From NCBI GenBank assembly GCA_965287045.1, contig OZ336880.1, forward strand, positions 40,982,001-41,046,000: a DNA stretch of 64,000 nt, given 5' to 3'. The number at the start of each line of letters is the position of its first letter. The stretch's first letter is position 1. This DNA comes from Carcharhinus amblyrhynchos (lineage: Eukaryota). The notes beneath the pieces were generated by a model that had not been told where the DNA came from, did not search any database, and was given only the letters and a program-made list of their open reading frames with translations. This document shows positions 5,734 to 38,700 of this stretch, in pieces. Made by a program: the position numbers and the translations under genes.

Positions 5734-8700
5734 GTACAGAAGTGAGAGTACTTTCACCTGTATGGTTTTCTCATATATGTTACTAATGGTAACTTTAATG
5801 TTCCACGGGCTTTTTCCAATAACAAATAATGTCATCTCTGTTTTTTGTTTTTTCATTGTTTTATGTGGTTTGTTCTGGTGATAATCTTGTGTGGTTTTAT
5901 CTTTACATTCTGATTTTTGTACCAGTCTTTGTAGTAGTGTTTTTGTATTTTATGTGTTAATATTTGTGTCATCTTATTCATCTTATTCTACACTCTTTTT
6001 AAACTTAAACTTATATGTTTTTGACCTTTATCTAAAATTCTAAAACTTTTTCTTCAACCTCTGAAGCTTTCAAGAAGATTTTACATGAAGAGACTATTGA
6101 AGTTGACAAGACTGTTCCGTATGAGAAAATTATTGAGCACGATGAGATGATCTTACCTGAAGAAACAATTCAAACTGATGAGACAATTTTACCTGAGGAA
6201 ATTGAGCATGATGAGATATTATATGAGGAAAGTGCTGAGTACGATGAGATGATATCTGAAGAAACTGTGCAGGATGCTGATAGGATTTTACCTGAGGAAA
6301 TTGTTGAGGCAGATGAGGAGATTTTAGATAAAGAAATTGTTGAACCTGACAAGGTGACTTCATACGAACAAAGTGTTGAGTTCTATATGGGTTTACCTGA
6401 GGACACTGCTCAGCTTGAGGAGATTATTTTACCCAAGAAAATTATTGAGGCTGGTGAGAAGACTTTACATGAAGAAATTGTTGAAGCAACACTTCCAGAA
6501 AAAAAGAAATTTATTTCAGAGAAAGGTATAGAACTATTTATTAGAGGATTATACTTTAATCAGCTGCAACATCTCATAACCAATGGAAATGTCTGTGATT
6601 TTTAAAATTTTATTTATATTCTCTGTGGGCCCTCTGTTTACTCACAGTACTGCTGTCTACAATATTGACACCTATATTTCAGATGTTCTCTAGTTACACT
6701 GGCTCTATTATTTCCTGTCTTTTAATTTTAATACCGTATTGTAATAGTTATTGAGTAGTGAAAGAGTTTGTGAGTTCAGTCATTTTTACAAATTCCCCAG
6801 CAAACCTAAACTTTGCCTAACTAGCTAACTAAAAATTCACATAAGTAACAGTTTAATATTTGCCAGATGAAGCAAACAGTCTCTTCCAGTAGGGACATCC
6901 TCCCATTATCTGAGCTTAGAGAATTTAAACCCTGACTTCCAAGAGCCAAAATTGGAGACTAATCAACTAAAACTGTGCAGTGTAACGTAAAGAAGTATTA
7001 GGAATCGTCTACCCGCTCTGAGATCATTTCACATGGTACAGTATTGACTTTCTGAGTACAAATGAAAAAATTCCATGGAGTAACTAGCACTCAAAGGTTA
7101 TTTGTTTAACATTTTTTGAATGAAGTTAAAGAAATATGTTTACTGTTTCTTAAGTATCTCACATGTTCAGTTGCCTGTTTTTGATAATAATAGAAATTTT
7201 GTATACATTCACTAAATATTTAAACAAAATATTTTTTGAAGTGGCTCCAATTACTGAGAAGATTGAACCTAAAGGTGATGTTCTAGTCACTGCTCCAGTG
7301 AAGCAAGATTTGGAACCAGTAGAAGGTATACAAATCAATGTCACTCATTGGCTTGTGTCATTGGTGCAAAATCCATGAAACTTTCAACATTTCAATGTCT
7401 TTCACTTCCATTACATCTCTTCATCTGCATTTCATCTTTCTTGTGGTTCATTATTTCATTGCTTAATTGTCTATGCTTGCTTTCAACTGTTCTTCATTTT
7501 AATTCTGTCACTCAGGCCTTGTTCTTACAATCTAATTAGTAAAGGAGCATTTGTACTGAAAGAAAAATTTTCTGGCCACATACAAGATACGACTATGAAA
7601 AATGAAGTTCAAACCCCCAACCTATCCAATTACTTATTTTGGTTTGTTTGTCATGAACAATAGTTAGCAGGTTACGCAATTTTAATGTGAGTAATATTTC
7701 CTCCACGACAGCAAAGAATAAACAAGAATTTTAACTGTCCAAGGACTCTATCAAGACCATTGCACAATTGACCAATCATGTGGCATGCTTAAACCCTAAG
7801 GAAAAGTGTACTTCCCAAGTTTTTCATCCCTCTGACCTGGGTAAACTGGCAAAATTCAGCATCAAGTGGAAAGTTGGGAAACAAATGCTTGTCAAAATTA
7901 GACTGATGCTGAACTCTAATAGTTTGATGCACTCTAGCTGTTGAACCAGGGAATAATTTGGGATAATATTCCATGTAATTATGCTTTTCAAGAGTTGACT
8001 TTAATGGTAATAAAATCTTTGAATTGTTTTTAAAGTGCCTGAAACTGAAGAGGTACCTGCTACAACACTTCCTATTTCTGCTCCAGGACCAGTCAAGAAA
8101 CCCCTTAAAGGTACAATTTATCAAAAGCTTGAACCTTAATTTACAATGGCAAATTTTAAAATACCTTACTACATAATATGTTGATATACAGTTTAGTATT
8201 TTTTTTCCTGAATGTTAAATGGTAAAGTTATGCAGAATTTAATTGCACAGATTTCTAAATGTTGTGTATTGGTTGTATCAAATTGTCTTCAGTCTATTTA
8301 AAAAGTTACAATTCATGTATCTTGTCTCTTGTGATCCCTTCTGTTAATGTGTTTATTTGGAAATTTTGCTGTCTATGGGTATGTTTTACAATGTGTTTAA
8401 TTTGGTGAACTCACCAATTTAGTTTGGAGATGATGACATTGTTTGGTTTTGTTTAAATGTTAGACTGTTCTTTTACGGAATTGCAAAAAAAGTCCTTTTT
8501 GATGTGTCACTAAATTATATATGAAACCTTTATAGCTGCAGAACAATTCAAGCCATCTTTGAAACTAAAACCTACAGTCAAAGTTCCAAAGGAAGTAGAA
8601 GATATAGAAATTTCAGTACTGAAGAAAATTAGTAAGCTTCCCAAGGAAGAGAAAGATGAAGATGAGGGCATTATATTAAAAAAGGTGGATAGCTCTCCTA

Positions 8701-11700
8701 AAGAAGAAGACAAGTACATAGGGGTAGAACTTAGGAAACCGATTAAAGGTCCTGAGGAAGTGGAAGATGAAGAACATGTACCACGAAAGAAACCAGATGT
8801 AATCTTAAAAGAGAAAGAAACAGAAAGAGAAATAATATTGCAGTTGGTTGATGAGATTCCTAAAATAGATAAAGATTATGGAAAAGGTGTATCAATAAAG
8901 AAATTAGATAAAATTTCTATTGAACAAGATGATGCATACAAAATGTTACCAAGGAAAGGTACCAAAGTACAATCCAAAGAAATGGAGGAGGAGCCAGGTA
9001 CACCACTGAAGAAACCTGATAAGATCACTAAGCAAAAGGAAGAAGCGGAAAAGATATCACTAAAAAAGCGTGACACAGTCCCTAAAAAAGAAACATTAAA
9101 AGAAAAACGCATAATATCAAAGAAACTACCCAGTGATGAAGAAGATAGAAAAAAGCAAATAATATTGGAAACAGTTGGTGAAGTGCCTAAAATTGAAAGA
9201 GGCATAGAAAAGACTGTGCATTTAACCAGAACAGAACCAGTTCCTATGAAGGTAGAAGACAGAGAAAAGATATCTGTGAAGCGTACCCTAGTTGCTGATA
9301 CAGAGAAGGATAAGGAGAAGATAATCCCATTGAAGGAACCTAGTCAAAGCCCTATAGAACAGAAAGATGAAGACAAACATTTGGCACTGAGAAAAGATAG
9401 GACATCGCCTCAGCTTGCGGAGGAAAAGGAACACCCTAGTCTCAAGAAAGTTGACCTTCCTAAAATTATTCATGAAAAGACCAGGATTGCACCATCTCTT
9501 GAAGAAGAGGCACCCAAAAGTATAGAAATTTACCCAGTCGATAGGATACCCAGGAAGACTGCTCCTGAAGAGCCTGCATCAAAATTGGTACGAGAGGTTA
9601 CTGCAGAAGAGGCTGCCGATATTACCAAGACAACATATGAAAAGAAAATGGTACCCTCCAAAGAAAAACCTCATGAAACATCTTTAAAGATTGGAAAAGG
9701 GAAAGTTCTGGTTTCAAAAGAAGAACAGGAAACAGCTTTACTGAAAAAAATTCCCTCAAAAGGAAGTGCATTTGATGCAAAAGAACCACAAAAGATTCAC
9801 AAATTACCTGAAAAGGATGTGGCAGCTTATAAAGAGAAAACACAAATTATCCCTACTAAAATGGATAAAGGGAAAGTATCTGACGAACAGGAACCAGTGC
9901 AGTTAGAAAAATTCCCCTCGAAAGAAATTCTGTTTGAAGATAAGGAATCAGAAAAACTAAAAAAAGTTCCTGAAAAGACATCAGTGATCCCTACAGCGAA
10001 AGTTGATGAAACACATTTTAAAATTGCAAAAGGAAAAATTCCTGTTTTGGAAGAACAGAAAGATCACATAGAGCTGAAGAAAGTTCCTTCAAAGGAAGTT
10101 GTAATAGAAGAAAAGCCACAGAAAGTACCAGTAAAGAAAGAACTGACACCCAGGGATATATCTGATATTGCACATCCTAAAATTAGAAAGGGAAAAGTAC
10201 CAGTGTCAGAAGAAAGAGATCAAGCACAGGTGAAGAAGATTCCTTCAAAAGAAGCTGCAGTAGAAGAAAAGCCACAGAAAATACCAATAAAGAAAGTACT
10301 GACACCCAGGGATATACCTGATACTGCACATCTTAAAATTGGGAAGGGAAAAGTACCAGTATCAGAAGAAGAAAAAGATCAAGCACAGATAAAGAAAATT
10401 CCTTCAAAAGAACCTGCAGTGGAAGAAAAGCCACAGAAAATACCAATAAAGAAAGTCCTGACACCCAGGGATATACCTGATGCTGCACATCTTAAAATTG
10501 GAAAAGGAAAAGTGCCAGTGTCAGAAGAAGAAAAAGATCATGTACAACTGAAAAAGATTCCTTCAAAAGAACTTCCGGTGGAAGAAAAGCCACAGAAAAT
10601 ACCAGTAAAGAAAATACTGACACCCAGGGATATACCTGATACTGCACTTCCTAAAATTGGAAAGGGAAAAGTACCAGTGTCAGAAGAAGAAAAAGATCAA
10701 ATACAGCTAAAAAAGATTCCTTCAAAAGAACTTGTGATGGAAGAAAAGCCACAGAAAATACCAGTAAAGAAAGTACTGACCCCTAGAGATGTGGCACACC
10801 TTAAAGCAGGCAAAGGGATTCCATCAGCTGTTGAAAAAGATTTGGAACTAACACAAATTAAAAAAGTTCCCTCTGAAAGCATCTCAACAGAAGATGACTA
10901 CGAAGTAGAATCAGAAGAAATGTCAATAGAAGAATTACGGGACAAAGGAGACTGGGAATGGGAATTAACTGAAGAAGAGGAGGAATATGGCTCATCTGTT
11001 GACTGGGAGCATGAAGATGATGAAGAGTTTGAGGGTGCAGTTGAGACTCCTTCAAAGCCTTACAAACAACGAGGTGAGATGGCTGCTGCACATCTACCAA
11101 ACTGATTGTTCATATCTTGTGCTTTGGAAAATAGATCAGTGTTCTTTGTTTTTGTTTGTGTTCATCTTTTGTCAAACATCTTTGTTTGTCCTCGCAATGC
11201 AGCTTGTGTTTATGTGCATGATGTATCATGGTTGTCAAAAGTCTGTCAAAAGGTTGTTAAAATTCATGTCTGTTTCTTGTGTTTGGTCCATGTGGTCCTA
11301 TGCTTCCCAAAGAAAAATTGTCTTAATTTGCTTTGTCGTTTGCTATTAACAGAGCTATGGGTGAATTAAAATCATTTTTCATTTACATCATTGAAGGCAC
11401 AGGCTTCAGCAGACCTTCCAAATAGTCTGGTTTCACATTTTTCATTCAAAACTAATTATGTCTTTTTCTTCATTTTACATCTCCTCTGGCCGCATGAGTA
11501 AACCTTTGTTTAGTGTATTAAACAAGTGGTAGTGCCATTTTTGATTTTTCTTTTGCCTGTATTACAGATTATCAATATGTAAATATATTTTTCCATCTAA
11601 ATACAATACACTTTCTGAGCCTCATTGTTTCCACCCTAAGGTTATAACAGAAGCATCTTAACATATAATAATTTGGAAGGATAGTCTTGACATGCCGATA

Positions 11701-14700
11701 ATTATGTTACTATCTCACTACAGATGCTAAGACACCAGCAGATGAAGCCGGCAGGGGTAGAGGCTTCCTCAGAGGTGAGAGGGGATATCAAGCACTTAGT
11801 CACAACTAAGGATCCATGCATGATTGTACACATATATTTGTTTCACAAGCACTACCAAACATTAAGTTGCAAACACATGCAATATTCCAACATAACATGC
11901 CAATTTAAGACAAATCATTGAATTATACTGCTGTTAAACAGAACTTTATTTAAATTTAATTCATATATTAGTAAAAAGAAATCCATTAAGTGTTATGGTA
12001 CATTTCAGTTACTTTAGAACTTAATTTGTCATATCAATTTGCATGCTCTTCCGATTACAAAAATGATTGTGGCTGCGTAGACTCGATAGCAGACCCTAGA
12101 TTAATATTGCATTGCTTACTTTTGCATGAACTGTCCTCTCTTTATATGCTTGCAGCTCCAAAGAGTAATAATTGAAGTTTAAATATACCTATTTACCAAG
12201 CATGAGTAATCAGTTTGTATACTGCACCTGATTATTGGCCAGAACTGATGTTGGTGGAGGAGAACTTAGCATGAAAGCTAAGTGAAGAAACATACACAAT
12301 GTTTCAATGTCCTGATCGCCTTACTAGAATCTAAAACTTTAATGCATGCATTTCATTTTCTATTTGCGTGAAAACTTGTGTTTCTGGCTGTATTGAGTAG
12401 TTCCTACTTGAATAAAATTATGCTGCCTGAAGACTGATTATGAATCATTGGTGCTCCTTGGCAAATAGCAAATATGCCAGTGCTGAAATTATATTGGCTG
12501 TATATTATGCAAATCTTACAACCTGAAAGCATGATGAAATGCGTAGACTTTGAAGGATGAGTTTCAATGCACCATTTTACCTCAGAAAACCAAGTTTACA
12601 GAGTTTGATCTCTTAGTCAGTCAGTCACATTGCTCTGCTTGCATCACTCTTTTCTTTTCCAACTGAAAATGGCACATGGCATCTAAATGTCTGGTTCGCA
12701 TCAAACCATCTTCAGAAGCATGCAAAAAAAAGCAACAAGTAAAACTGAATATATTTATGTTCAACTCTAAATTTTAGCAAAAAAGACACCATCGCCTGGA
12801 GAGGGAGACAAGAAGCCACTTAAACCGGGTGGAGGAAGGCCACCCTCAGAGGAACCACCTTTTGCAGGATTCCAGCTCAAAGCGGTCCCACTGAAATTTG
12901 TCAAAGAGTTGAAAGATATTGTGCTGGAGGAAGCTGAGTCTATAGGGTCTTCTGCCGTCTTTGAATGCCAGATCTCCCCATCTACAGCATTAACATCATG
13001 GATGAAGGATGGAAGCACTGTGAGAGAAAGTCCTAAATACAAATTTACCTCCGATGGCAAAGATAGAAAGTTACAGATTATTGACGTGCAGCTTTCAGAT
13101 ACTGGTGAATATTGCTGTGTTGGTCGCCTTGGCAAACAAGAAAAGACATCCACAGCAAAACTAATTGTTGAAGGTACTGAGCATTGCTGTTTGAGATATT
13201 TCACAGCATAAACCATGAGCAAGACTGTGCAATGTATTAAAGTTGTGCAACTTAGGAACCCTGCTGAATAGTTACTTTCAGTCTAATTACTAAGGTCAAA
13301 AGGTCATATACACTGTTACCATGTTATTTCACAAGATTCATCAATTCAGTGTAATCCAAGTACTAGATTTGGATCTTTTAGATGTTATGAAAAGCTTTTG
13401 CCATTTTGTATAATATGAATACTTTGGTTTTTTTATCAAAAATTAATTGATATTTTCCCAAAACATTTTAGAATTGCCAGTGGCATTCTTTAAAACATTG
13501 GATGAGGAAGTAACTGTCTTCAAAGGACAGCCCCTGTACTTGACCTGTGAGCTGACCAAAGAAAAACCAGTGGTTTGGAAGAAGGATGGTGAACCTCTTG
13601 AACCCACATCTGACAGATACACAATTAGCGTCATTGGGCTGCAGCATTCGATTACCATTCCAAGTTCAGATTTTGAGGATGCTGGAGTGTATTCTGTTGA
13701 GACTGCTAACATAAGATGTGAGGGAAAAGTTAATGTACAAGGTTAGTATGTACGTCTTCATATATTTGAAGCAGCAGTAAAGGGATTTGAGGATTTGGTT
13801 TTAGCTTACATATTTTTGTCCATTGTAGAGATTGTGAGGAAGTGGTTTGTTAAACCTGTTCGGGACCAGCGGGTCAAACAGAAAGAAAATGCCGTTTTTC
13901 AATGCGAAATTGCAAAAGACACACCAAATATTAAGTGGTTCAAAGGAGATGAGGAGATTCCAATGGAACCAAATGCAAAAACTGAAATTAAGAAAGTTGG
14001 CAAAATTCTTACTCTCACTGTGAAAAATGCAACACCTGAAGATATGGCTGAATACACAGTGGAGGTGGAAGGACAAGCTTCTACAGCCAACCTGTTTGTT
14101 GATGGTAGGTATTCTATTACTTGGAGAAATGTGCACTCCTTTGCCCTACCAAGCACTGATGATCAGTATTAGAAATAATTTTAGGTGGGGCACACACCAC
14201 TTGTTCATATGTTTAATCTCTACTGTCATAATGTTTAGTCACCATTGTAAATCTCTGTCAGGATTTTCTGTTCTTTTCCTACATGGACTAAAGGAATGTA
14301 GCAGCAGGCTTTAGTCACAAGTGGCCTTTTGAGCTAGATCCTGAACTTCATAGGTACTGACTTGTAGGTAACACTACAGTCAAGTTACTAGTTTAATAAA
14401 ATGTTTCCTATGTTGCTTATCATCATGAAATAGAAATCGCTGATAATTTTTTGACATTCCAATTCTAAAATTAAGTAATTTTACAACCAATGGAAAATTT
14501 CAACCTTTACCTACACAATTAAACCAAATCCGATCTACCCTAGTCCAGTCTTTTCCAGCAATATCCATGACTCTTTCAATGCCCACAGTCACTTTAACAG
14601 TCTCCAATTTTCTAGTGCTAATCATCTTCCCTTCACCATGGACATATATTCTCGCAATATCTCCATCCTCCACCAGAGTAGCTTACATTAACACTGCAAT

Positions 14701-17700
14701 GAAGTTACTGTGAAAATCCCCACACTCTGTTCAGACCAATGCACCTAATCAGCATGTCTTTCAAACTGTGGGAAGAAACCAGAGCATCGGGAGGAAACCC
14801 ACGCAGACACAGGGAGAACACACAAACTCCACGCGGACAGTGACCCAGGCCAGGCAAATCTGGGATCCTGGCGCTGTGGGGCAGCAGTGTTAACCAGTGT
14901 GCCACCATGCCACCCCCTGAAACCCACTGGATCTCACAGCTACCTTGGTCATACTGCCTCATTCCCTGTTTCGATAAGGACAGCATTCTATTTCCCAAGA
15001 TTCCCTGTCTCAGTTGCACCTGATGATGCAACTTGACATGGTTACCACTTCTATGCCATCAACCTTCATATTCAGTGGATCATCCACTGCTGTTTGCACT
15101 ACCTCCACTCACCAAACACCTCTATCCTCCTCTCAGCTTTCACCACTTCGCAGGAACCCTACCCTTCATTACATTCCTAATTCTAATTGCAGATTGTTGT
15201 TGCCAAGTCTGGTATATGTTTTGCAAAACAAGTGGAAATCATACAAATCAGAAATTCACAATCAAGAAAACTTGTGTAGACTTTTCAAGTCTGCTTTTGA
15301 TGGTATTACTTGTGATTGGATATTTTCAGCCTGCTATTCTAATGGGAAAATGACATTGAATGTTCTATTTTAGAACGGGAGATAGACATACTTTCAGAAT
15401 TGCAAAGCGTGGAAGTGTATGAGAAAGAGACAGCCACTTTTGAAACTGAGATCTCTCAAGACGTTCCAGTTGAGTGGAAGCTCAAGGGAGAAATCCTCCG
15501 CCCATCACCTGTAAGCTTTTCTTCAAAGCTTGAATCTTTGTCATTAAAAAAGTGGAATTCAAGATTGTAATACTGTTTTGTAAAAATGTACCTAAATTAT
15601 GATGTTTTTAAAAATTTCAGACCTGTGAAATGAAAGCAGAAGGTGCAAAACGTTTCTTGATCCTTCACGATGTCAAGCTGGACCAAGCTGGTGAAGTTGT
15701 CTTCAAGGCACGCAATGCCACATCCATTGCTTACCTAAGAGTTAAAGGTAACTAATAATCCTTAAAGAAAATGTCAGCGCAGTTTTATTTATGATGAAAA
15801 AAGATGAGAAATTTTAAAGTAGTTTGTTTTTTGTTTGATTAAAATGTAATTTTGCTTGCAGAAATTGAACTTGACTTTGAGGCACCACTAAAAGATGTGA
15901 CTGTTCCTGAAAAGCACCAGGCACGATTTGAGTGTGTGCTTAACAAGGAGGTTCCCAAAATTCTGTGGTCAAAAGGTACCGACATTCTTAAGGCTGGTGA
16001 TAAGTATGATTTAGTTGCTGATGGAAAGAAACACATCCTTGTTATCAATAAGTCAACCTTTGATGACGAAGGAGATTATAGCGCTGAAATTGTGGACAAG
16101 AAATCGACTGCAAAGCTCACTGTAACTGGTGAGTCCTTTTAATTAATTACATTTCATAGTTAAACAATTTGCTGATTTAATGTGTTGGTAATATTTAATT
16201 GATCTGACCTCAGTTTGGCTTATGGTTTGGTAATGTGATAATGTATTTGTGAAGCCTTACTTAAATATTCTGTTGATGATTTTTACATTGTCTCTAGCTG
16301 ACTTAACTTTTGTTTTTCTGAAGCACTGAGAAACCTGTATAATTAAAGATGGAGATCCATCATTCAGAATATCACATACGTAGTATCCTTCTTGTGCAAC
16401 ATGAGGCCATTGAGTTTGCACTGACCCTCCAACAGGGCATCTTACCCAGGCCAACCCCTGTAACCCGGCATATTTAGCGTGGCTAATCTACCTAACCTGC
16501 ACGTCTTGGGACTGTGGAAGGGAACTAGAGCACCCAGAGGAAATTCATGCAGACATGAGGAAAATATGCAACATGCAAACTACATGCATATAGTGACCCA
16601 AGGCCAAAATCAAACACGGGTCCCTGGTGCTGTGAGGCAGTAGTGCTAACCACTGCACCACAGTGCTGCCATATTAGATCAAAGCCCAGGACTGATCCGG
16701 GTTTGGGGAGTTCCCTTACTCTAATGGCAGGCTAGTTAGGCCACTTAAAAAGTACTATATTAAAGAAAGAACTTGTATTTATTTCATCGCTTTCTTCATA
16801 GTTTAGATGTATCAAAGCTCAATGAAATACTTTTGAAGTGTAGCTCCTGTTGGAATGGAGGGAAATAGCAGGGTATAAAAATGTCAATTTCAGTTGATTT
16901 ATTAGTTACACGATTTTGAACTGTACAGTAACCGATCCATGCATTACTTCATATTTCAGGCATGAGGTTGAAGTTCATTACGCCACTGAAAGATCAGACA
17001 GTCAAAGAAGGTAACACAGCTCATTTTGAATTTGAGCTTTCGCATGAAAATCTCCCAGTGACCTGGTACCGGAATGAAGACAAAATTCACCCAAGCAGAA
17101 CAGTTCTGATCTCCACTGATGGGAAGAAGCATGTATTAGAAATTAAAGAAGCAACTCTTGATGATACATGTCAGATACGAGCAGAAGTTGCTCAACTATC
17201 CACAAAAGGACAACTGAATGTCATTGGTAAGAATTTAGTAAAACAATGGTTTGGAATTCTGTTGTGCAGAATGCAATACCAACTGAGGGTGCAGAGAATA
17301 AGGCTGAGGGGGCTCAGGCATTGACATGAACAGGAAGTTCATGTCTGACCTCCAGCATTGGGATCAAAGGTCCAAATTATTCTGGCAGTTGAGGGAAGCA
17401 AGCCAGCAAAACTGACACCAAACAGCAAGAGGGTAATTTTACTGGTTTAGCACATCCTTATAACTCATTAACATGGAAATTTTTGTGATTGAATAGTAGC
17501 TTTAAAATTAACTGTGAACCACATGGGATCACGGGTCTTCAGTTGCCCGGTTGTTTAAACTTGAAAGTGAGCAGGCAGTTTAGTCTATGAGAGGAAGGTG
17601 AGCCACTTAGACCCGCCTGCCATTTTCAGAACAAAGAGGAGGCTATGATGCATCACAGGGAAGATGCAGTCATTATAGAGAAGGTGAGAATCTTTGCAAG

Positions 17701-20700
17701 AATCTGAAGGTCTTTTGAAGAGGATGAGAGTCATTGTGGGGAGGTGAAAGGACATCTCAGGAAGGGAGAAGAGTCACTGTGGGAGGACAAGGGCCATCTC
17801 TTGGTGGTGGGGAAGGGAACAAGAGCAGATTAAATTGCCCGCAGGACCTTGGTGACACATTTCAAACACAGGTACCAGGTGTTTCCTGAAGACTAGGGAC
17901 ACAATGAAGGACTTATCTTTGCCAGGGCAGCGTTGCAACATTTGTGGAGTTTTTAGACCTTACCATGGTCTTGGCCTCTCGGTGTTCCTGGAACCCTTAG
18001 TGAAGAAGTAGCGGTAGTCTGGAACTTCAAAGGAACAAATGGTAGGAGGCCATTGTAAAGTGACTCAGCCTGTGGTTGGATCAAACAGTAAGAACTGTTA
18101 ACAGGAAGCCCAAAGTGATGCAGTCAGGTGACAATCATTGCTGCGTTTCACAGTATACAGGCCTTGCCTGAATTATCTTCAAATATCAGAGGAATGATGC
18201 CAACAAAAGTTCTGAATGTCTTGGGAAGCCATTATGTACCAGTGCGTCCTGCTACAGAATGATCTGCAGCACCTGGAACTTTGAAGAGACCCAATGCCTG
18301 TGACTTTGATGGGCTGGTATCATTAAACTTTTACGCCAATGGCTGTTTCCAGGGTGTCACTGGAGATGTGTGGCATTTATGAGGCAGCTGCTCACCACTG
18401 CGTCATCAAAGTGATCAGTTCCCTGTTGAAGAGAGCCAGAGAGTTAGTGCAATATACGACTGAGAAAGAGAGACATGCCAACAATCTGTGGGCTTCAGGA
18501 CCAGTGCAGGATGTTATCCATCGAATCCATATGGTAATTAGGGCTCCCTGGGAGCAGCCTGTGCTATTTATCACCAGAAGTGGTCCAGCCCATTCACTTG
18601 CAAATGGTGTGGGACCCAGAGGAAACAAATCTTCAGCTTTGTGCTTCAGGTTTCCAGAAATTTCACAAGATGCATACATTCCACACCCCAACCAGATGCC
18701 ACAGATCTTCAAGATCACTACATGCCTACACACATATATAATCACAGAAACAATGCACCATTCCAGCCAAGGAGCATTATAATGAATGCCATTGATCAAC
18801 AAGAGCAATGGCTGAGTAGACCATTGGCTTGTTAAAAATAAAGTATCTGGACTGCTCTTGCAGGACTCTACAATTGGTATCTCAGTGTGTCTCTGGGATT
18901 AATGGCACCTGTGTGCATTGCATAACCTTGCAGCAAAGGGAGGCGGCCTTTGCTGATTCAGGAGCTTGGGGAGTCACACTCCTCATCTGATGATTAAGAT
19001 GGGGAACAGGGAGCAGAACAGGCAGATCATCAGATTGAAGCTCCTTCACCACGTGCAAAGGCAATGAAAAGACCCACAAGAGAAATCCATGAGCTCCACA
19101 CTGACACCAGATTCAAGCAGGCAAAATGCTTTGACAAGCCTTCTGCTTTAGATCTTATGCTCATGCGACCTCCAAATGTCCTTCCAACAGCAACCATTAT
19201 CCATCAAGAAGTAACGTCATTCTTGTCACTCCAACCATGGAGAAGTCAATACTCTGCTTTCACTGATATATACATGCAACTTATTCTGCAAGTACCCATA
19301 TGGCTAACCAGGGGACAACATTAGCATCATCCAAAATACAGAAATAATGGAAATAAGAATACTTAATCACATGCTATTATAAGCTATCAACATGGTGCAT
19401 CTACATGTGGTCTCTCATGCTATCATGCGTGCTCTGACTTGGTATCACTTCAATGTCAACAGCTGAGGTGGAGAGAGAATGGTTGTGCTCATTCTTGTTG
19501 CTCTCTCTGCTTGTTTCTGCCAAGTTCTGAATTCTCTATAGTGATTCCACTGTGCGATGCCCCATGCCTGCGATGACCTTGGTGACCATCCTTTGATTGC
19601 CCGAGCCTAGAAGATCCTGGCAAGCTGAGGGACTCCTGCCTGGATGCTGATGTTTCTTTCATTGCCATGGTTACTGGAGGCGCTAGAGCCAGTGATTGAG
19701 GAGCGGCTGCTCACCTTCTGAGAGCCCTGAGAAGAGCTTCTAGGAGAGGGAGCCTGGTGCTTCTCCTTCATCTCTCTGCTTGACAGCAGCTCCCTATCCA
19801 CTTGAGGAAGAGGGAGACTTCGAGGAATGTCCAGTCATCTCATCCCCCTCTTGCCTGGTCCCTGTTGCAAAGAGCTCATGGCCAATGCAGCAATGACCAG
19901 GTCCTGCAATGTCTGCCGGTCCGAGTACATACCCAGCAGCAACTGAATGGTCTGCTGAATCTGACTCTGCCTGATGGTCACAGCCTCTCCATGGAGAAAA
20001 TCATGCCTGAGACATGGGCAGAATGCTTGGTCAGAATAGACTCCTCCATCATCTGCATATGCCTATACATGGCAGTTCTACTAGATGTTCCTCTGTCTGT
20101 TTTTCCATCACCAGAAGGTTTTTATTGCCTGTCACCAGAGACCCATCATCTGCTAGATGCCCTGTTTGGACCTGGCTTCCAACAATCCTCTGACTATCAG
20201 GTCCCTCAGCTGTTGAAGCTTCTATCAGCTGTTCAGGCATGTCTGGTATGTTCATTCAGTCTGATTCTGAATGGTTATCACATTCATCGAGGTGAATGTA
20301 TCTGCACTGATACATGCACCCCTGAGTCTTCAATGTTATCCTCCTCAAAACTGAAGGGACATGAATGACAGAGCAGTTCCCTCCAGAATTCAAAGAACAC
20401 CAGTGGAGAACACAAAGAATTAGATTCACATTTTGTTCAGGTGTGAAGGGCCAAATGACCTACTCCTGCTCCAATTTTCTGTGTTTTTTATAATCTCACT
20501 TCTCATCCCTTTCTGATACATGTCTCCTTTCTGTCCATTGATGGACACCAACTGGAGACTTCTTCTGTCTCTTCAGTCCCATTTCACTGTCTTCTATTGT
20601 TCAGCTGCCCTGCTCTCTGTCCAGGCTCATTGTCTCCTCCTGTGCTGATATGTGATCTAATGTTAGCCACTGCTCCACCCACCTTTTTTTGTTCTTTGCT

Positions 20701-26700: not shown

Positions 26701-29700
26701 ACTAACCCCACTCCCATACTGCCTCATCCCAGTACCCCAATTGTCAATTTGCATGTTATATTGCATTTTCAGTACCTTTATAGGAGCCTGGGAATTCCAG
26801 GCTTCCCCAAGAGTACAGGATATAATTTCCCTGCTCTTGTAACTACAAGACACTCAGATTTGAATGTGCCTTGCAGTGCTGTCCATCAGTAGCCTGAATG
26901 CCCAGATGTTTGTGACAAACAGCACAACCTCAGATTTCTTAGGCCTTATACGCAAATTTAACATTCTGGAATATGTCTCCAAATGTAACTAACCGAACAG
27001 AAACCTTCCTTTTTAAGCATATTCTGTCACCAGAATTGCATGATTGTTTCCAGGAGTTTAATCAATCAACATTCATGAAAATTAGAATTTCTATTAGAAC
27101 TTGTAGTCATATTTGTAAAATTGAGTGTTCACTTTACTCCATGCATTTATAGGTAGATATAAAAAAAGAACCAGTTCAGTAAAGCCATTCAGAGGTGAAA
27201 ACCAATTTTCCTATTCCACTCTCACAAAATGATGTTAATTCTTAATACTCTCTGAAATGACCTTGCAAGCCTTTTAGCTATAAAACAACCACAACGAAGC
27301 AGACCAATAAGGGACAAACAAGAAATATTTGCCTAGACCCAGTCAGTAGGTTAGGCCAAAGCTCAGACAACCCAAGCCATTCAACCCTAGGAAAAGAAAA
27401 CATTTTGCTGATCTCTGGGAACTGAGTGTTCCTGGGTATGTCTTATCACATTTATTGAAGAGATCTACGTAATAGAGACTACTGGGAGCAGAGGCATAGT
27501 TGTAATACTTCTGGATTGGTAATCCACAGTCTTGGACTGATGTTCCAGAGATATGGGGCTGGATTTCCCAAATAGTACATGGTCCCATTTCTGGGACAGG
27601 AAACAGTTTCCAAGCCCATGCATCAACCGAGCCACCAGAAACAAGAAACGCACACCCCCTTCCCAGTCCTCCTCAATAACATCTGACAACTTAAGAATTG
27701 GAAGAGCTATCTCAATGACTGACCTATGCTACAGAAAGAGGAAATTCAGCTCATCAAGCCCGCATGCCAACAACAATCCCACCCAAACGCTATCCCCATA
27801 ACCCCACGTATTTACCCTGCTAATCCCCCTGACACTCAGGGTAATTTAGCATGGCCAATCGACATAACCCACGCATCTTTGGACTCTGGGAGGAAACCAG
27901 AGCACCCAGAGGAAACCCAAGCAGACACAGGGAAAATGTGCAAAATCCACACAGTCATCCAAGACTGGAATTGAACCCAGGCCCCTTGCACTATGAAGCA
28001 GCAGCGCTAACCATCGTGCCACCATGCCACCCATGGTCATTCTCAGAGAATCATACCTTACAGCCAATGTCCGAGACTCCTCCACTATCATCCATGGGCA
28101 TGTCCTGCCCCACCAACAGAACAGACCCATCAGAGATAACAGCACAGTGGTTTAGAGTCAGGAGGGAGCAGCCCTCAGATCCTCAATATTGACTCCAGAT
28201 TGAAAGACATCATGGACAAGGAAACCTCTTGCTGATTACCACCTAGTGCCCTCTCTCAACTGAGAGATCAATGCTCCTTGATGTTGAAGATCAATTCAAA
28301 GAAGCACTGGGGTTGCAAGTGTACAGGATAAATCTAAAAATGTAACCTAGCCCATATTGTATTTCTTTTCAAATTATATAGCAGCTGATGATTTCCTCAG
28401 GGCATGGTGTAGAATTACACAGAATCTACAGCACAGAAACAATCTTACACTGGCGTTCGTATTCCATACAAACCTCCTCTCACCCTGTTTAGTCTATCTA
28501 ATCCTCATCTCACTAGATCATATCCTACTGTCCTCTTCACCCTAATAAACTTATCTAGTCTCCCTTTAATTGCATCTGTGCCATTCAAGTACTTCACTGT
28601 ATAAACAGAAAAAGTATCTTCCACACACTGAAGTAGACATATAGGCTTGTGGGTTGTCAGACACGACCACTAATAGTACTACTGCAGATCAATGATTATA
28701 TTCCACAGGACCTGTCTGGAAGTATTTAGCACCTGGCCACATTCATCTCTGTAACTGCAACAATCTGTGCTCAATGAAAAAATTAACATGACATCTGAGG
28801 CGGAATTTTCCCATCCCACCTACCATGGGAATTGGAGTGAGCAGAATAGGACCATGCAAAGGATATTGGGCAGGATGTTCTGGTCTTGGGGTGGACATGG
28901 ATGGAAAATCCCACCCTTGCTGTTATTTTGTTAAGGAAATTACAGGGACTTGTGTACTTCTGTGTACACCTGTGTCTCTTTCAGGATCAATAATTCATAT
29001 AGTACCAGCATGTTAGATTCTAACTTCCCATGATTAGATTTGCCAAATGATTCTCTAGTAAATAATCTGTATTTTGAAAACACTGCTTTAAATATTTTGA
29101 AAATGTTTCACATGGTGTTTTAAATAAAGGATTTGTTAAATTATCCTGAATAAGGCATTGTGGATTTTCTTTCATTTTAGGTTCGTTGGTTTAAGGACGG
29201 TGTTGAAGTGAGAAAAGGCAAGAAGTATGACATTGTTGCTAAAGGCAAGGAGAGGATGCTTATCATTCACAAAAGCAGCTTTGATGATGAAGCTGAATAT
29301 GAATGTGATGCAAGGACAGCTAAAACCTCAGGATTGCTTACAGTTTTAGGTAATCAATCAGATCAGAGCGGTACATAGTTTTATCTTTCAGGAACATGTT
29401 TTAGACATTATTGATCCATTTGTACTGACATATGATGCCATGTTTTGCAGAAGAGGACGCTGTCTTCACAAAGAACCTTACAGATGCAGATGTTACCGAG
29501 ACAGATAGCATTAAATTAATTTGTGAAGTTTCGAAACCAAATGCTGATGTAAGATGGTATAAGGGAGACACAGAGTTGCCTGAAATTGGTCAATATGAAC
29601 AACTTACAGATGGCAAAAAGCGCATTTTAGTAATTCAGAACACCAACCTAGATAATTCTGGGGAATATAATTGCAGACTTCCAACTGCTCGGACTTCATG

Positions 29701-32700
29701 TGAACTGAAAGTTCATGGTATGTATGGTGGTCTATTGTGTTATGAGTTTGTTTAATACGGCCATGTCGTAACTTTATCCAATGTTAATTATCCTCTTGTC
29801 TTTATTACAGAATTGGCAGCAGAGTTTATTTCTCGACCACAGAATCTGGAGGTAGTAGAAGGAGACAAAGCAGAGTTTGTCTGTTCGGTATCAAAGGAGA
29901 CCTACGAAGTGAAATGGCTTAAAGGTGGCAAAGAGCTTGTATCAGATGATAAATATGAAATCGCACCTGATGGCAAAAAGCGAATGCTCATTATAAAGGA
30001 CTCCATACCAAAAGATGAAGGAACTTATGTTGCCATGATTGGTACCTCAAAAGCACCAGCAGAACTGACAGTTATTGGTAGGTCATGTGAACTAAATTGT
30101 ATACGTACAAACAGGTTCACAGGAAATAGAAGCATTGCATGTGCACTGTCAAATTACATTGAATGTTGCTGAAAAGACAGACAAGTTACTGAAGCATTTT
30201 GTTCATCAAGAATAAATGCAAAAGTGACAAATTTCAAAAAGTCATTTGAAATTTGGCATTCTTGTGTTTGTTCTGATGAGTGCAAAACAAAATGCTTCAG
30301 CATTATGTTTCTCTTTTCAGCAATATTCACATTCTGTACTATCAAACAATATATCAAATTATATTACTTTAATTAAATAATTAAAAAGAGAAACCTATAA
30401 ACAGGTATGTTAACTCCCATCATCTTGCAAAAGCAGGAGCAGTAATGGATTAGGGTGGTGCATGTAATGCTCCATTTGCATGTTGTATCACCTCACACAC
30501 CCCCCGCCCCCCTCACCCCAAGCTTCCTGCTGGGTGGCTGAGGCATATTGTCTAAATCAAACAGAAGCCATGTTTGTTTTACTAAATCTGCACACTATTT
30601 CTTGCAGGGGCTGATTAGCCCAGTTGGCTAGATGGCTAATGTGTGATTCAGAATAATGCCAATGGCACTGGCTTGATTCTCATTCTGCCCGAAGTTGATT
30701 TGGGGGACCTGTCTCCTTGTTCCACTCCTGAGAGCGGAAAGCAAACCATGATTGGCAAAAAGTACCAAGAAAATGGGTCAGGTGAAGCACCAGCAGACAT
30801 GAGCCAATGACTTGCCTTTGGGCAGAGCATACATCTTGACAATTTTCTCTGTAGGACACTGATGCCATTTTAACTGCCTGCTGACAGAGCAATGGATGCT
30901 CTATTTAACTTCATTTTGACTTGACAAGCTGCATCGAGATGGCAATTTAAAGCTTGCAAGTCACTGCATGCATCTTGGTGAAATCAGGCCCTGGAAATGG
31001 GCACTATCAGATGATCAGACAATAGTCAGCTACCAGATTTTTAAAAGCAGCCCTTGATGTAAAATTCCTGGTGTGTTTCTATTTTCCTGACGGAACTTAA
31101 ATAATTCAAGAATGTGAAAATATCAGGTCAAAGGAAGTTAATTTTGAGTTTGAAATGCAATTAAGGGTGATATTAATGCTACATATCCAGGCGTTCTTGG
31201 TTCCCTGTCTGAGATTTTTAAGGCGCTGGAATTAGAGGCTAAGGTCAGCAGGGGATTGATTATTAGTCATGATGTGGATGTGCCGGCATTGGACTGGGGT
31301 AAACACAGTAAAAAGTCTGACAACACCAGGTTTTAGTCCAACCGATTTATTTGATAGTAAATGCACAAGCTTTCGAGGTTTCCCTCTTCGTCAGGTGAAT
31401 GGAGAGTTCTGGCCTCAGACAGAGCATATAAAGCACAGATCTAATCAGTAATCTCTAAACTGTCTGTGCTTTATATGCTCTGTCTGAGGCCAGAACTCTC
31501 CATTCACCTGACGAAGGGACTAACCCAAAAGCTTGTGCGTTTACTATCAAATAAATCGGTTGGACTAAAACCTGGTGTTGTCAGACTTTTTACATTGATT
31601 ATTAGCACAGTGCTTTTTTTTGTCTTTCTTGGAGTAGTAAGTTTAATTTCAAGCTTATGAACATTGTAAGTCACCGAGACTAGCCCAAGGCCCCAAGTTA
31701 GGAAATGTCACTTCAATTATTGGTGTATCCCACCCCTAATAATAATGTTGAGGGAAAGTTTGCTTTCCCCAAATAGACAACTTCATGCAGAAGTATGTAG
31801 ACTTCAACTATTTTATTGTTTTGAATAAACTTGTTTCCTTTCTCAGAACGTCTTAGGATAATAACTCCGATCAAAGACCAGCTCGTCACAGAAGGACAAG
31901 AAATTGTGTTTAATTGTGAAGTTAACACGGAAGGTGCCAGAGCAAAATGGTTCAGAAATGACGAAACTATCTTTGATAGTCCAAAATATATCATGGTCCA
32001 GAAAGACTTGGTCTTTACTCTCAGAGTCAGGGATTCACAAAAGGAGGATCAAGGAACGTACTCAATTGCACTAACAAATAATAGAGCTGAACATGCAAAA
32101 TGTTCAGCAACATTAGAAGTACAAGGTAAGTGCAATTTCTTGGATGTTAAACAGTTGCACGTACATTATGTTAAGTAAAGTGGCACAAATATTACATAAC
32201 TCTTCTTCATCTTTGCAGAGGAGGAACTGAAAATCATTGAACCTCTTGAAGATTGTGAAACAATGGAGAAGAAGTCTGTAACTTTCTGCTGCAAAGTGAA
32301 CCGTGAAAATGCGACACTAAAATGGATGAAAAATGGAGAGGAAATCACACTTGACAAACAATTTGTGTACAAAATTGACAAGAAAAAGCATTCTCTTACA
32401 ATTAGAAACTGTGCATTCAAAGATGAAGGTGAATACACTGTAATTGCCGGACATGACAAATCAGTTGCTGAACTTCTTATCACAGAAGCACCAGCAGATT
32501 TCGTAGAGCATATTCAAGATCAGACTGTCATTGAGTTTGAAGATGCAATCTTTTCATGTCAACTGTCTAAGGAAAAAGCTGCAGTGAAATGGTACAGGAA
32601 TGGCAGAGAGCTCAGGGAAAGCAAGAAGTATGTTTTGTTCCTTTTTACTTTCATTCATAAGAGTTTCATATATGATATATGCATAATATATAACATATGT

Positions 32701-35700
32701 ATCATTCATAATCTTGTCATGTTGCCAGGTATCAGTTTGAAAAGGATGGTAGTTTGCGCAGACTTATTATAAGGGAATGTCGACCAGAAGATGAATGTGA
32801 ATATTCCTGTGGTGTTGAAGACAGACGTTCAAGGGCTAGATTGTTTGTTGAAGGCAAGTGCTGATTTAGAAAAACAAGCATACTATGATTTTAATAATTC
32901 AGGAAATGTGAGCTAATTATTATTTTTCTCTTTCCAGAAATCCCAGTTGAGATCATTAGGCCGCCACTGGATGTCTTTGAAGCTCCAGAATCAGATGTTA
33001 TTTTTGAAGCTGAATTGAACAAAGACAAAGTTGAAGTCAAATGGCTCAGGAACAATATGATAATTGTTCAGGGTGATAAACATCAAATGATGAGTGAAGG
33101 AAAGATACACCGACTGCAGGTTTGTGACATCAGACCACGTGACCAGGGTGAATACAGATTCATTGCCAAGGATAAAGATGCAAGAGCTAAACTGGAACTT
33201 GCAGGTAAGTTAGTTTAAATTCTTTGAGCATTCTTGAGACATATTTTCTATCACTAGGAGCTGTGCTGAGAATTTGACATATTCGCAACTTGTGAATCTT
33301 TTCATTGTAGCGGTACCAGTAATCAAGCTGACAGATCTCAACCTTGTGATCGATGCTGGAAAGCCGTTCACGATGACACTGCCATATGATGCTTACCCAC
33401 GTGGTGAAGCTGAATGGTTCAAGGAAGACACTGCTACTGCTGAGTATGTCAGTCTGCCCAAACGGAACATTGACACAACTGCAGAAATCACTAATTATAG
33501 ACTTTTTGATCCAAAGAGAACTGACAGAGGAAGATACAAGATTGTGATTCAGAATAAACATGGAAAGGGTGAAGCATTTATAAATTTGGATGTTATTGGT
33601 AAGTATTCTTTGTTACACATATGTTTTATCACTGTGTTATTGTGAAAACTATTCTTAAATTTTTTTCTAAAATGTGCTTCCTGAAACAATATCACCTTTC
33701 CGAATTTACAGATGTGCCTGGCCCAGTCAAGAATTTGAATGTAGTAGACACTTGCGATGGTGAGGTCAGCCTTGCTTGGGATGAACCTGACACTGATGGT
33801 GGTAGCAAAATCCTTGGCTATGTAGTAGAACGACGTGATGTGTTGCGCAAAACATGGACCTTAGTTACTGATCGTGCTGACAACACTGAATTTACCGTGA
33901 CTGGTCTCCAAAAAGGAGTAGAGTATCTATTCCGTGTCAGTGCAAGGAACAGAATAGGCACAGGTGAACCTGTGGAAACTGATAAACCTGTTGAAGCTAA
34001 GAATAAGTTTAGTAAGTATCAGATTGTCTTCATTCACTAATTTAAGCTCTGAAATCCAATTCATTGCTATGGGTCAGTGTCAGAAAATAAGAATATTACT
34101 ACCTTTTTCCACCAGGTGTACCTGATGCACCACTGAACGTCCAAGTGAAAAACGTGAACAAATTTGGTGCCACCATTACATGGGAACCACCAGAATATGA
34201 TGGTGGATCAGAAATCACAAACTATGTTATTGAGTTACGTGACAGGACCTCTGTCAAATGGGAACCAGCCATGACAACCAGAGCAGATGAACTCACCGCT
34301 CAGCTGAATGATGTAGTAGAAAACAGAGAGTATATATTCCGTGTCAGAGCAGAAAACAAAGCCGGTGTAGGAAAGCCCAGCGCAGTTTCACATCCTGTGA
34401 AGATCATGGATCCAATATGTTAGTATCAGATCAGAAATATGTGTAGTAAATGTTCTTCAATTTTTATGTTTGTACGTTCCCTCATATGATTTCTCCTTTT
34501 TTTCAGACAAGCCAAGTCCACCTATTGAATTTGCTCATTCAAAGCAAACCAAAGAATCTGTGCAGTTGAAATGGGAACCTCCTCTAAAGGATGGTGGAAG
34601 TCCAATACAGGGCTACATTGTTGAATTATGTGAAGAGGGCACGGATAAATGGAAACCCTGCAATATAAGACTTATTCCTGAAACAACTTTCAAGGTTATT
34701 ATCTCTCATGTAATTAATTTGTTAAGAATACCCCTGATGACCTAATAAGAGCTAGAGGCAACTGCTTTCCTAATGGTTATTTTAGAGGTGCAATTCACCC
34801 ACAATCCATCACCAAGTCACAGTTTAATTGTCAGCTGATGGTAATAGTCCCTGGGCAGCTGATTTTCCTGGACCTGTGATGTGCTCGGTGAGATTCATGA
34901 AATAGTGTTTCAAGTAGGAGGTGTTAGTCAGCATTAAGTTTCATTCACAACTTCAGTGCAGATTTTTTGTGAATGGATTTGCAAATTTGGTACATGGTAT
35001 CTGTACCATTCAATGCAGCATTGGACTAACTGATGGGTCACATGTTTAGGGGACATCAAGGACATGCTTTCTCTTCACATGATTGTGCGTAGGAACTCAG
35101 CCAGAGAATATGTGCTTTGTTGCTAGGTCATATGGAGAGTTTAAAAATCAATGGTTTTAAGTTTATTTATCATTGTCACAAGTAGGCTTACATTAATACT
35201 GCAATGAAGTTACTGTGAAAATTCCCCAGTTGCTACACTCCAGCATCTGTTTGGGTACACTGAGGGAGAGATAGCACGGCCAATGCACTTAACCAGCATG
35301 TCTTTCGTACTGCGGGAAGAAACTGGAGCACCCAGAAACGCATGCAGACACAGGGAGAATGTGCAGGCTCCACACAGACAGTGACCCAAGCTGGGAATCG
35401 AACCTGGGTCCCTGGCACCGTGAGGCAGTAGTGCTAACCACTGGTTCTTGAGTTCTGAGCAATACCATTGATAATCTTGAATCAACCACATGGTACAGGA
35501 CTGGATTGACAGAAGCCAGACTAGGTAGGGTTGCAGGTTCACAAATATTTGAAGATGAGATTTTTTTGAAATCATTTCTTCAGGAATAAAGATTTACAGG
35601 ATTTTATGTAGGATAGGATGTAGGTCAGAAAATTCTGGAAGAACTGAGGTTTATCAAGGATGGACTTCAGGGAATTAGTGAAGAAAGCGTTAGAGAAATG

Positions 35701-38700
35701 AAGGCTTGAGGTGTTGAAGGATTTCGCAATAATTTTATTACTGATATGGATGATAAGATAGACAAGATAGAAATTAGACTCTATACTCTATCTGGGAGTG
35801 AGTGGATGAAGAGACAGACAGAGAACTGGATATTGATAACTTCTGAAGAGAAAATGGAGATAGATGGTGGAGAGACTGGAGGGGCTGATTGTGGACAAGT
35901 CCCCAGGACCGGATGGAATGCATCCGAGGGTTCTGAAAGAAATGGCGGAGGTGATAGTGGATGCCTTGGTGGTTATTTTCCAGACGTCGCTGGATTCCGG
36001 GGAAGTGCCGGAAGATTGGAAAACGGCTAATGTTACGCCGTTGTTTAAGAAGGGTGCCAGGCAAAAGGCGGGGAATTATAGGCCGGTTAGTTTAACGTCT
36101 GTGGTAGGTAAAATGTTAGAATCCATCATTAAGCAGGAAATTGCGAGGCATCTTGAAGGGAATTGCTTGATAGGGCGGACGCAACACGGTTTCATTAAAG
36201 GGAAGTCGTGTCTGACAAATTTACTGGAGTTCTATGAGGATGTGTCTAGGGCAGTGGATAGAGGAGAGCCGGTGGATGTGGTCTTTCTGGATTTTCAGAA
36301 GGCGTTTGACAAGGTACCTCACAAGAGGTTATTGCAGAAGGTCAGGGGACATGGAGTTGGGGGTAGGGTGTTAGCGTGGATAGAGGATTGGTTGTCAAAT
36401 AGGAGGCAGAGAGTGGGGGTCAATGGGTGCTATTCGGATTGGCGGATGGTGACTAGTGGGGTGCCCCAGGGGTCGGTGCTGGGGCCTCAGCTATTTACCA
36501 TTTATATAGATGATCTGGAGGAGGGAACCGAGTGCAGGGTGTCGAAATTTGCTGATGACACCAAGATTGGGGGAACGGCAAATTGTGCGGAGGGTGTGGA
36601 GAGTCTGCAGAAGGATCTAGATAGGCTGGGCGAATGGGCCAGGAAATGGCAAATGGAATTTAATGTTGGCAAGTGTGAGGTGGTCCACTTTGGTAGGAAG
36701 AATGGTAGGAAGGACTATTACTTACGTGGCGAAAAACTGCAGCAGGCGACGGTGCAGAGGGACCTCGGGGTCCTTGTGCATGAATCGCAAAAACCCAGCT
36801 TGCAGGTGCAGCAGGTGGTCAGGAAGGCGAATGGGATGCTGGCCTTCATAGCGAGGGGGATTGAATATAAAAGTAGGGAGGTCTTGCTGCAGCTGTATAG
36901 GGCATTGGTGAGGCCGCAGCTGGAGTACTGTGTGCAGTTTTGGGCGCCGCACCTGCGCAAGGATATTTTGGCCCTGGAGGGAGTGCAGAGGAGGTTTACT
37001 AGGCTGATACCGGAGTTGAGGGGATTGAGCTATGAGGAGAGGCTGAATAAACTAGGCTTGTACTCGTTAGAGTTTAGAAGAATGAGGGGAGATCTCATTG
37101 AGACGTATAAGATGATGAATGGGATGGATAGGATAGAGGTGGAGAGACTCTTCCCGCTCAAAAAAGACAGTAGGACTAGGGGGCACAGCCTCAAGATAAA
37201 GGGGAGGCGGTTTAGAACGGAGTTGAGGAGGAACTTCTTCACTCAAAGGGTGGTGAATCTCTGGAATTCTCTGCCCGTTGAAGTGGTGGAGGCTGCCTCG
37301 CTAAATATTTTTAAGAAGCGGGTTGATGGGTTTTTGATAAGAGAAGGGATTAAGGGTTATGGGGAGAGGGCGGGAAAGTGGAACTGAGCCACGACAGATC
37401 AGCCATGATCTTATTGAATGGCGGGGCAGGCTCGAAGGGCTAGATGGCCTACTCCTGCTCCTATTTCTTATGTTCTTATGTTCTTATGAAAGTTCAGAGG
37501 AATCAAGATAGGTTGAGTTTTGATAGATATTTATTGTTTTAACTCTAAAATATTTGTGACCGTATACTTGCTGATGGTTGAAAAAATGTGCTCAGAATAC
37601 TTGTACTGTTTTATATTACACAGCTTTTCATTTTTGTCATTCCAGGTTACTGGTCTGAAACCAGGAGTGAAATATTATTATCGGGTATCGGCAGAAAATG
37701 CAGCAGGTGTTTCAGATCCAGCTGATGCCCTTGGCCCACTAACAGCTGATGATCCTCATGGTAATGGAAGTCCTTTTCTAAATACAAATATATTAAAGGC
37801 TACAAAATTGAGCTTTTTAAAAAAATTATGATATTTATAGCTTTTCAAGACTGATTGCACTTATCTCTTTCAGTGGCTCCTACCCTTGACCTGAGTGCAT
37901 TCAAAGATGGTCTTGAGGTCATTGTTCCAGAACCACTTAAGATTCGCGTTCCTATCACTGGCTACCCTATACCCACTGCAAAGTGGGCTAAGGATGAAAC
38001 ACCTATTGAAAGTAGTGATCGTGCGAAGATGCAAACAACTGCTGCATATACACTATTGGTCATTTCTCCCAGTGAGCGCCCTGATAAGGGACTATACAGC
38101 TTGACACTGGAAAACGATGTGTCGTCTGTCTCAGGAGAAATTAAAGTGAATGTAATTGGTAAGTATCTGAATATTTTCAAAAAAATAAACATTTTAATTA
38201 ATTGTTCCAAGAGAATTTCACGATAGTTTGTATTTATATATCACCTTTAACACTGAAAACATCTCAAGACTCTTAACAAAGACAGGAAGAAAATAAATAC
38301 ATTATGTGGGCATGTGCCATGCCTTCAACCTGCAAGTCAGGAGAAGTTATTGAAAACGTAATTAAAAGGACGGGTTTTGAAAAGGTTTTTAAAGATCGGG
38401 AAAAAAAGCAAAGACGAGAAAAGATTTAAGGAAAGCATTTCAGAAAGTGGGGTTAAACCACCTGAAGGTGCTGAAAGTAATGATGAACTAAAGGGACTTC
38501 AAAAAAAGGAGAAAGCGAGATACAAATGGTCAGCGAGAACGACTGACTGATATAGAAAGAGTTCTAATCCTTGGAGAAATTGCAGAATCGGACATGCAAA
38601 GCTGTGGAAGAATTTGAAAAATGGGATCATTATTTTAAATTGCATGCATAATACAATCATGGAATCAGAGTTTGTCAGAAATGCTGTGGTTGATGGAAGA

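Follow-up and report, generated by a model that had tools for sequence, protein, structure and literature searches.

An inverted pair of hammerhead motifs in an intron of a titin-like shark gene: a probable Penelope-like element insertion with ribozymes predicted to be silent

Two hammerhead ribozyme motifs, one on each strand, lie in a single intron of a titin-like gene of Carcharhinus amblyrhynchos, and the copy read in the sense of the gene carries a change at its catalytic base G12. The locus raises the question of how such a pair comes to sit in an intron and whether the broken sense copy reflects selection for the sake of the gene or ordinary decay. We analyzed the window, the whole 64,000-nucleotide stretch of DNA in which the locus lies, using a motif descriptor, family models, folding and comparison with published Penelope-like elements (PLEs). 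The features needed for the argument are listed in positions of the window.

30078..31846, plus strand: host intron of the titin-like gene (GT-AG, phase 1), flanked by two I-set Ig exons
31255..31266, plus strand: left copy of the 12-bp target-site duplication, beginning with ATT (exact repeat of 31594-31605)
31267..31439, minus strand: left arm, a 173-nt pseudo-LTR-like unit including its tail, antisense to titin
31267..31307, minus strand: 41-nt 3' extension ("tail"), left arm only, with an AC-rich end and a final ATG plus one base
31361..31400, minus strand: intact minimal type I hammerhead motif (descriptor and folding)
31440..31462, no strand assigned: 23-nt spacer, the head-to-head junction forming the hairpin loop
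31463..31593, plus strand: right arm, a 131-nt inverted unit without tail, sense to titin
31502..31540, plus strand: core-mutated hammerhead motif (descriptor)
31594..31605, plus strand: right copy of the target-site duplication (exact repeat)

The pair of hammerhead motifs is real and not a chance match. Both motifs of 39-40 nt named in the original prediction were recovered letter for letter, on the minus strand at 31400-31361 and on the plus strand at 31502-31540. A type I descriptor (helix I of at least 3 bp, CUGANGA, helix II of at least 3 bp, GAAA and a palindromic helix III) matched the 64 kb on both strands once perfectly and once with one mismatch, these being the two motifs, and none of 40 first-order Markov controls of 64 kb each matched with one core mismatch or fewer. 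With positions numbered by hand after the standard hammerhead scheme, the intact motif has C3 at 31394, an unpaired A at 31387, a 4-bp stem II at 31386-31375, G12 at 31374 and a palindromic helix III, and its predicted cut falls between 31367 and 31366. The core-mutated motif has C3 at 31508, a 3-bp stem II at 31516-31526 and a CpG-to-CpA context at the mutated position. The earlier description of an intact antisense and a core-mutated sense motif is borne out by the A found in place of G12 at 31527 (+); against the core CUGANGA/GAAA/UH the left arm shows 0 mismatches and the right arm fails at G12. As isolated motifs, both can form helices I and II, with the G10.1-C11.1 pair and an unpaired base after A9. 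A search with hammerhead models, proposed as a check together with the motifs, gave no support: Rfam returned 0 hammerhead matches at gathering score in the whole window and no hammerhead among 15 matches at E up to 10 in 31200-31700. The ribozyme call thus rests on the descriptor and on consensus motifs from the literature. The miRNA matches that Rfam gave for 31200-31700 were set aside, all being below gathering scores and reflecting the hairpin only.

Both motifs are held by the arms of one 327-bp head-to-head inverted-repeat insertion at 31267-31593. The two motifs are both real but are not independent occurrences. The region first pointed out was the correct one but took in just the centre of the element, whose arms measure 173 and 131 nt and whose flanking duplication measures 12 bp. 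The arms are divergently oriented, the left one being extended by 41 nt at its 3' end, and the spacer between them is probably extra 5' sequence of one of the two arms. The duplicated 12-mer has only two occurrences on both strands of the window, and the chance of a 12-bp duplication is ~1e-4 when 1200 boundary pairs are allowed for.

The insertion and the intron hold no PLE coding remnant: three intronic frames of at least 70 aa belong to no Pfam family, the frames of the arms are without Pfam match, and a search with the left-arm frame gave 0 credible relatives among 4 candidates. A Pfam scan covered 28 frames of the window, drawn from the 139 that reach 90 aa and from shorter frames around the element; the only ones to score were three LINE-type reverse transcriptases and one Ig exon. 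A stop-free frame at 31445-31594 (+) in the right arm passes across the hammerhead. In the left arm this frame is shifted by the 12-nt stem II, and the tail ends in an ATG that is in frame with it, possibly the start of the parent reading frame. We discarded a coding role for the stop-free frame, as its 2 matches (E ~9e-4, 35-36% identity, among 1.84 billion representatives) were taken as chance. No relatives turned up when bacterial and archaeal genomes were scanned for exact patterns and plasmids and phages were searched with blastn, as expected for an animal repeat. A weak blastn match at 19790-19823, considered as another copy in the window, lacks the hammerhead core and was rejected. Two fragments at 911-958 (+) and 4756-4803 (-) are 83% alike and belong to another repeat that ends before any hammerhead core; we take it to be, possibly, a second degenerate PLE-like family.

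By its domain content the host gene is titin-like. On the plus strand, the exons on either side of the intron code for I-set Ig domains, and exons further away for fn3 domains (Pfam, 4 of 4 exons scored). In PDB comparisons myosin-binding protein C (MyBP-C) is the top match of an Ig exon and titin provides the next four, and an fn3 exon finds titin first. These matches and the long series of Ig and fn3 exons in the gene uphold the earlier assignment to titin, as a titin-like gene on the plus strand. The insertion stops ~250 nt before the 3' splice site of the intron, and the element would be spliced out with the intron, being present in titin pre-mRNA as a predicted double-stranded stem of ~130 bp.

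The surroundings contain further repeats. The same intron holds at 30160-30329 an AT-rich, imperfect, MITE-like hairpin of ~170 nt (-79.7 kcal/mol for 30142-30329) without a hammerhead core. An open frame of 863 codons at 8514-11105 (+), without Pfam match and with a tandem repeat of ~159 nt at 9893-10790, is placed where a PEVK-like or a lineage-specific exon of titin would fit. The window also has three young, presumably CR1-like LINE copies, each with an RVT_1 frame, at 1973-3685, 35864-37387 and 56220-57119 (+); they are 93-98% identical and all in sense within the titin-like gene, and in two of them frames of 570 and 507 aa remain open. Among the 120 matches listed for one young LINE reverse transcriptase, the most similar named ones are five from sharks and rays at 63-68% identity, compared with 43-56% for birds, turtles and coelacanth; a Klebsiella-labelled match at 61% is probably contamination, and others among those listed reach up to 78%. 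The pattern points to a probable elasmobranch host. Copies of a SINE-like repeat, which we assume to resemble an elasmobranch SINE, are found in both orientations at 14683-14915, 16472-16666, 27796-28033, 35188-35443, 54157-54391 and 60227-60293.

All structural features of the insertion are already known from the PLE literature. Minimal hammerheads (min-HHR) with an unpaired base after A9, a G10.1-C11.1 pair and a palindromic helix III are described in the pseudo-LTRs (pLTRs) of metazoan PLEs (Cervera and De la Pena, 2014; PMC4209133), and fish, coelacanth, frog and reptiles have them in thousands of copies. According to the same source, dual minimal hammerheads occur on opposite strands 100-700 bp apart, and PLE hammerheads vary extremely within one genome, with covariation. 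The motifs analyzed here share the type I layout, the CUGANGA core followed by one unpaired base, G10.1-C11.1, GAAA, a palindromic GC helix III loop, a short helix I, a U-rich upstream and an AU-rich downstream flank. In Fig. S3 of PMC4209133, compared by eye, the core GAAAGCUU seen here recurs in the rows for Chrysemys (turtle) and Philodina, and the downstream AAAUAAAUC in the turtle row. The original assignment to the PLE-type minimal type I hammerheads with palindromic helix III accordingly agrees with the consensus and the turtle row of that figure. The locus differs in its short stem II (3-4 bp) and in having one copy with G12A, and the rows of Fig. S3 and Table S1 include no cartilaginous fish.

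The architecture points in the same direction. In the elements Adineta Pen2/Pen3 a head-to-head inverted pLTR is reported with 8-10-bp duplications and a 31-bp tail on one arm (PMC3846280), and the general PLE scheme has an inverted, 5'-truncated copy with a 30-40-bp tail at one end (PMC8557442). A PLE protein from Anolis (Poseidon PAc) cuts at ATT and extends both strands; it is a predicted dimer, with two start sites that bound the tail (PMC11167929). Like the PLEs that encode an endonuclease, the insertion has 5'-truncated inverted pLTRs head to head, a tail on one arm with the hammerhead a little upstream of it, and an exact 12-bp duplication that begins with ATT at an AT-rich site. The tail of 41 nt is one base over the quoted range. 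Unlike in those elements, both arms are truncated inside the pLTR and differ in stem II, and neither insertion nor intron contains a linked reverse transcriptase and GIY-YIG frame from which a clade such as Poseidon or Neptune could be read. In a truncated copy the absence of this frame is expected; it weakens the case for an autonomous PLE, not for an element made by a PLE. Membership in the PLEs is thus likely on structure and motif rather than on homology to a named element. Non-LTR retrozymes are likewise non-coding and PLE-related, carry type I hammerheads and are reported in one chondrichthyan (preprint 10.64898/2026.07.22.740005), but theirs are head-to-tail tandems of at least two hammerhead units and here a single inverted pair gives one match per strand. 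MITEs (PMC8969392) share the small size, lack of coding sequence, long inverted arms and target duplication; they differ from the unequal arms, the one-sided 41-nt tail and the internal hammerheads seen here.

The arms are nearly identical except in stem II. Outside it they differ at 2 of 120 positions, both G/A differences in CpG context, one per arm: the right arm is affected at G12, the left arm in helix I. Non-CpG differences outside stem II number 0. The contrast originally drawn between the arms holds for the G12 change in the sense copy but not for an unchanged partner, as the intact arm too has a CpG-type change (31362 vs 31539). Within stem II, five edits in 12 nt separate the left version (4 pairs and a 4-nt loop) from the right one (3 pairs and a 5-nt loop), and at least three independent events in these 12 nt have a probability of at most 0.004 at an upper-bound background rate. 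Five edits beside 0 non-CpG differences elsewhere are not random decay. Among 20,000 random 5-edit variants of stem II, 3-4% keep three Watson-Crick pairs and 2-3% also keep G10.1-C11.1. Stem II had been called covarying, and both versions do pair, as only 2-4% of random 5-edit variants would, but the difference is likely variation of the parent family that is older than the insertion. A local donor for the variant was sought and rejected: the right stem-loop II has a 7-mer match downstream in the arm, and 6.5% of random hairpins have such a match. Given a divergent stem II in otherwise near-identical arms, the arms were likely copied from two pseudo-LTR templates rather than from one cDNA folded back. 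A two-template origin also fits the one-sided tail and is the likeliest reading.

Taken together, these features make the element, in our judgement, probably a recent, dead-on-arrival PLE insertion of two truncated pseudo-LTRs whose hammerheads are predicted to be silenced by pairing of the arms. The endonuclease of the element would have made a nick in each strand of an ATT site, with 12 nt between the two, and reverse transcription would have been primed from both nicks. One priming at the distal start would have produced the arm with the tail and the other, at the proximal start, the arm without it. The templates would have been two pseudo-LTRs, on two RNAs or as two units of one tandem RNA, that were already unlike in the variable stem II, and the two 5'-truncated cDNAs would then have been joined head to head. 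The 41-nt tail and 12-bp duplication, slightly longer than the published 30-40 and 8-10, fit this explanation less well. More generally, single PLE insertions may use two RNA templates, with a dimeric enzyme priming both nicks and stem II acting as a natural barcode, an idea that we put forward tentatively and hold to be possible rather than probable. In the accessible text of PMC4209133 the two arms of single insertions are not compared, and a title search of the literature on twin priming with Penelope, whose coverage leaves subscription papers largely outside, returned nothing on PLE integration.

Other origins of the inverted pair were weighed against this explanation. Self-priming is the published reading of head-to-head pLTRs (PMC3846280), and an unlikely variant of it would have a folded-back cDNA giving identical arms, one stem II being rewritten later by template switching or slippage in the hairpin. 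The 5' ends of the arms, which lie within 23 nt of each other, are more simply explained by such fold-back self-priming than by two independent truncations, and the stem II difference could result from a single complex event, in which case the clustering statistic would not apply; the recurrence of the right stem-loop II 7-mer in the arm would suit it as well. However, plain fold-back would leave identical arms, and the 7-mer loses weight through the frequency of such matches in random hairpins. A rewritten stem II would moreover have had to keep G10.1-C11.1 and three Watson-Crick pairs, a rare outcome among the random variants, and in PLE families the copies already commonly differ in stem II (PMC4209133). 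We also consider it improbable that the palindrome represents a non-autonomous, PLE-derived and MITE-looking family in which the stem II difference, and perhaps G12A, came from a master copy. PLE pLTRs can mobilize other sequence in trans (PMC3846280), and the short unit and clean duplication would suit such a family, but a single PLE integration event accords with the tail on one side and the unequal arms, the window contains no second copy, and a fully paired RNA would presumably template poorly.

A fold-back artefact of assembly or sequencing is extremely improbable. Known read artefacts include inverted repeats that are long and near-perfect, and PLE structures in particular cause assembly trouble. 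The latter is reported in PMC8557442. Against an artefact stand the exact 12-bp duplication, the one-sided tail, two different stems II that are both paired, and one CpG-type change in each arm.

At this locus the hammerheads are predicted to be silent, each paired with the opposite arm. The whole element folds at -241.8 kcal/mol (z -32), a stability that none of 100 shuffles reached, and the arms are predicted to pair into a duplex of ~130 bp in RNA of either strand. For the whole element, the penalty for adopting the hammerhead fold is 46.1 kcal/mol on the plus strand and 45.8 kcal/mol on the minus strand; it is 46 kcal/mol with 300-nt flanks, and 44.3 and 42.3 kcal/mol in nascent fragments ending just past the motif; it is 3.4 and 6.2 kcal/mol in a single arm and 1.3 and 1.9 kcal/mol for the isolated motifs. 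These energies are equilibrium predictions without proteins. With a computed penalty of 42-46 kcal/mol on both strands, the hammerhead fold is predicted to be inaccessible in its own transcript. On each strand the complementary arm is transcribed ahead of the motif, and the sense motif would, by prediction, pair with the other arm during transcription. The minus strand with its intact motif serves as a natural control, the intact core being, in these predictions, equally buried. In the hairpin formed by the plus strand, the A of position 12 (31527) lies opposite a C (31374), as is automatic for any change of this kind between inverted arms. Within long duplexes, A-C mismatches are preferred sites of A-to-I editing.

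The motifs lie on opposite strands as a single inverted pair, so no dimer can form in cis. The palindromic helix III is present and two copies pair through it in silico, with the active fold of the intact-motif dimer at -14.1 kcal/mol vs -18.7 for the minimum-energy dimer and -16.6 for two monomers. Monomers of min-HHR are reported not to cleave and dimers to cleave weakly (PMC4209133; dimer cleavage in PMC5785218, as cited in the review PMC6765202). Eight of nine Xenopus retrozyme dimers were inactive and one was active (preprint 10.64898/2026.07.22.740005), and the Anolis hammerhead cleaves only with protein and is dispensable for insertion in vitro (PMC11167929).

The broken sense copy is likely ordinary decay and not a ribozyme disabled to protect the gene. 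G12 is indeed essential, as first stated: according to PMC2553840, G12A cripples catalysis at least 500-fold and up to ~1e6-fold. A hammerhead active in sense would have cut titin pre-mRNA, and G12A might have been selected or, as the original prediction suggested, have let the insertion persist; we consider this very unlikely. The killing change does sit in the sense arm and at the essential base, a PLE hammerhead cleaves in vitro when assisted by protein (PMC11167929), and Xenopus retrozymes are described as depleted from introns, yet ~42-44% of them overlap introns (10.64898/2026.07.22.740005). The persistence claim nevertheless finds no support here, given a predicted sequestration of 44-46 kcal/mol on both strands, a lone monomer without second sense copy in the 64-kb window, a matching CpG-type change in the other arm and the probability of the pattern under neutrality; as a single case (n=1), selection is not demonstrable from this one locus. 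The predicted burial of the motifs in the duplex removes the motive for selection on G12. A search of titles and abstract beginnings found nothing on sense vs antisense intronic ribozymes.

The other half of the original statement, that a single CpG-type transition can be neutral, is consistent with the numbers. Our neutral model took four CpG sites per arm (16 mutable bases) and two events as given, and at least one event at G8/G12 of the sense arm with none at G8/G12 of the other arm then has a probability of 25/120 = 0.21. CpG columns of the LINE copies in the window differ 6.4 times more often than other columns (27/182 vs 55/2387, from two pairwise comparisons), and with this ratio the probability that both arm differences fall on CpG is ~0.10. 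This value is compatible with decay though not tightly, the arms being slightly more CpG-skewed than the LINE calibration. We infer that the change of G12 to A and the change in helix I of the left arm are neutral CpG-type transitions, their direction being unpolarised by an outgroup, and G12A could also predate the insertion.

The ribozyme side of the locus matters little, as motifs of this type occur by the thousands in genomes of fish, amphibians and reptiles and the two found here are predicted to silence themselves. The locus illustrates that an inverted PLE insertion can bury its hammerheads in a duplex and so be tolerated in an intron without any core mutation. The predicted double-stranded stem of ~130 bp in titin pre-mRNA would be a likely substrate for RNA editing. 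The useful lead is the mismatch in stem II between near-identical arms. Through it, the way in which PLEs produce their inverted ends becomes testable at genome scale: comparing stem II from arm to arm would separate two-template priming from fold-back self-priming.
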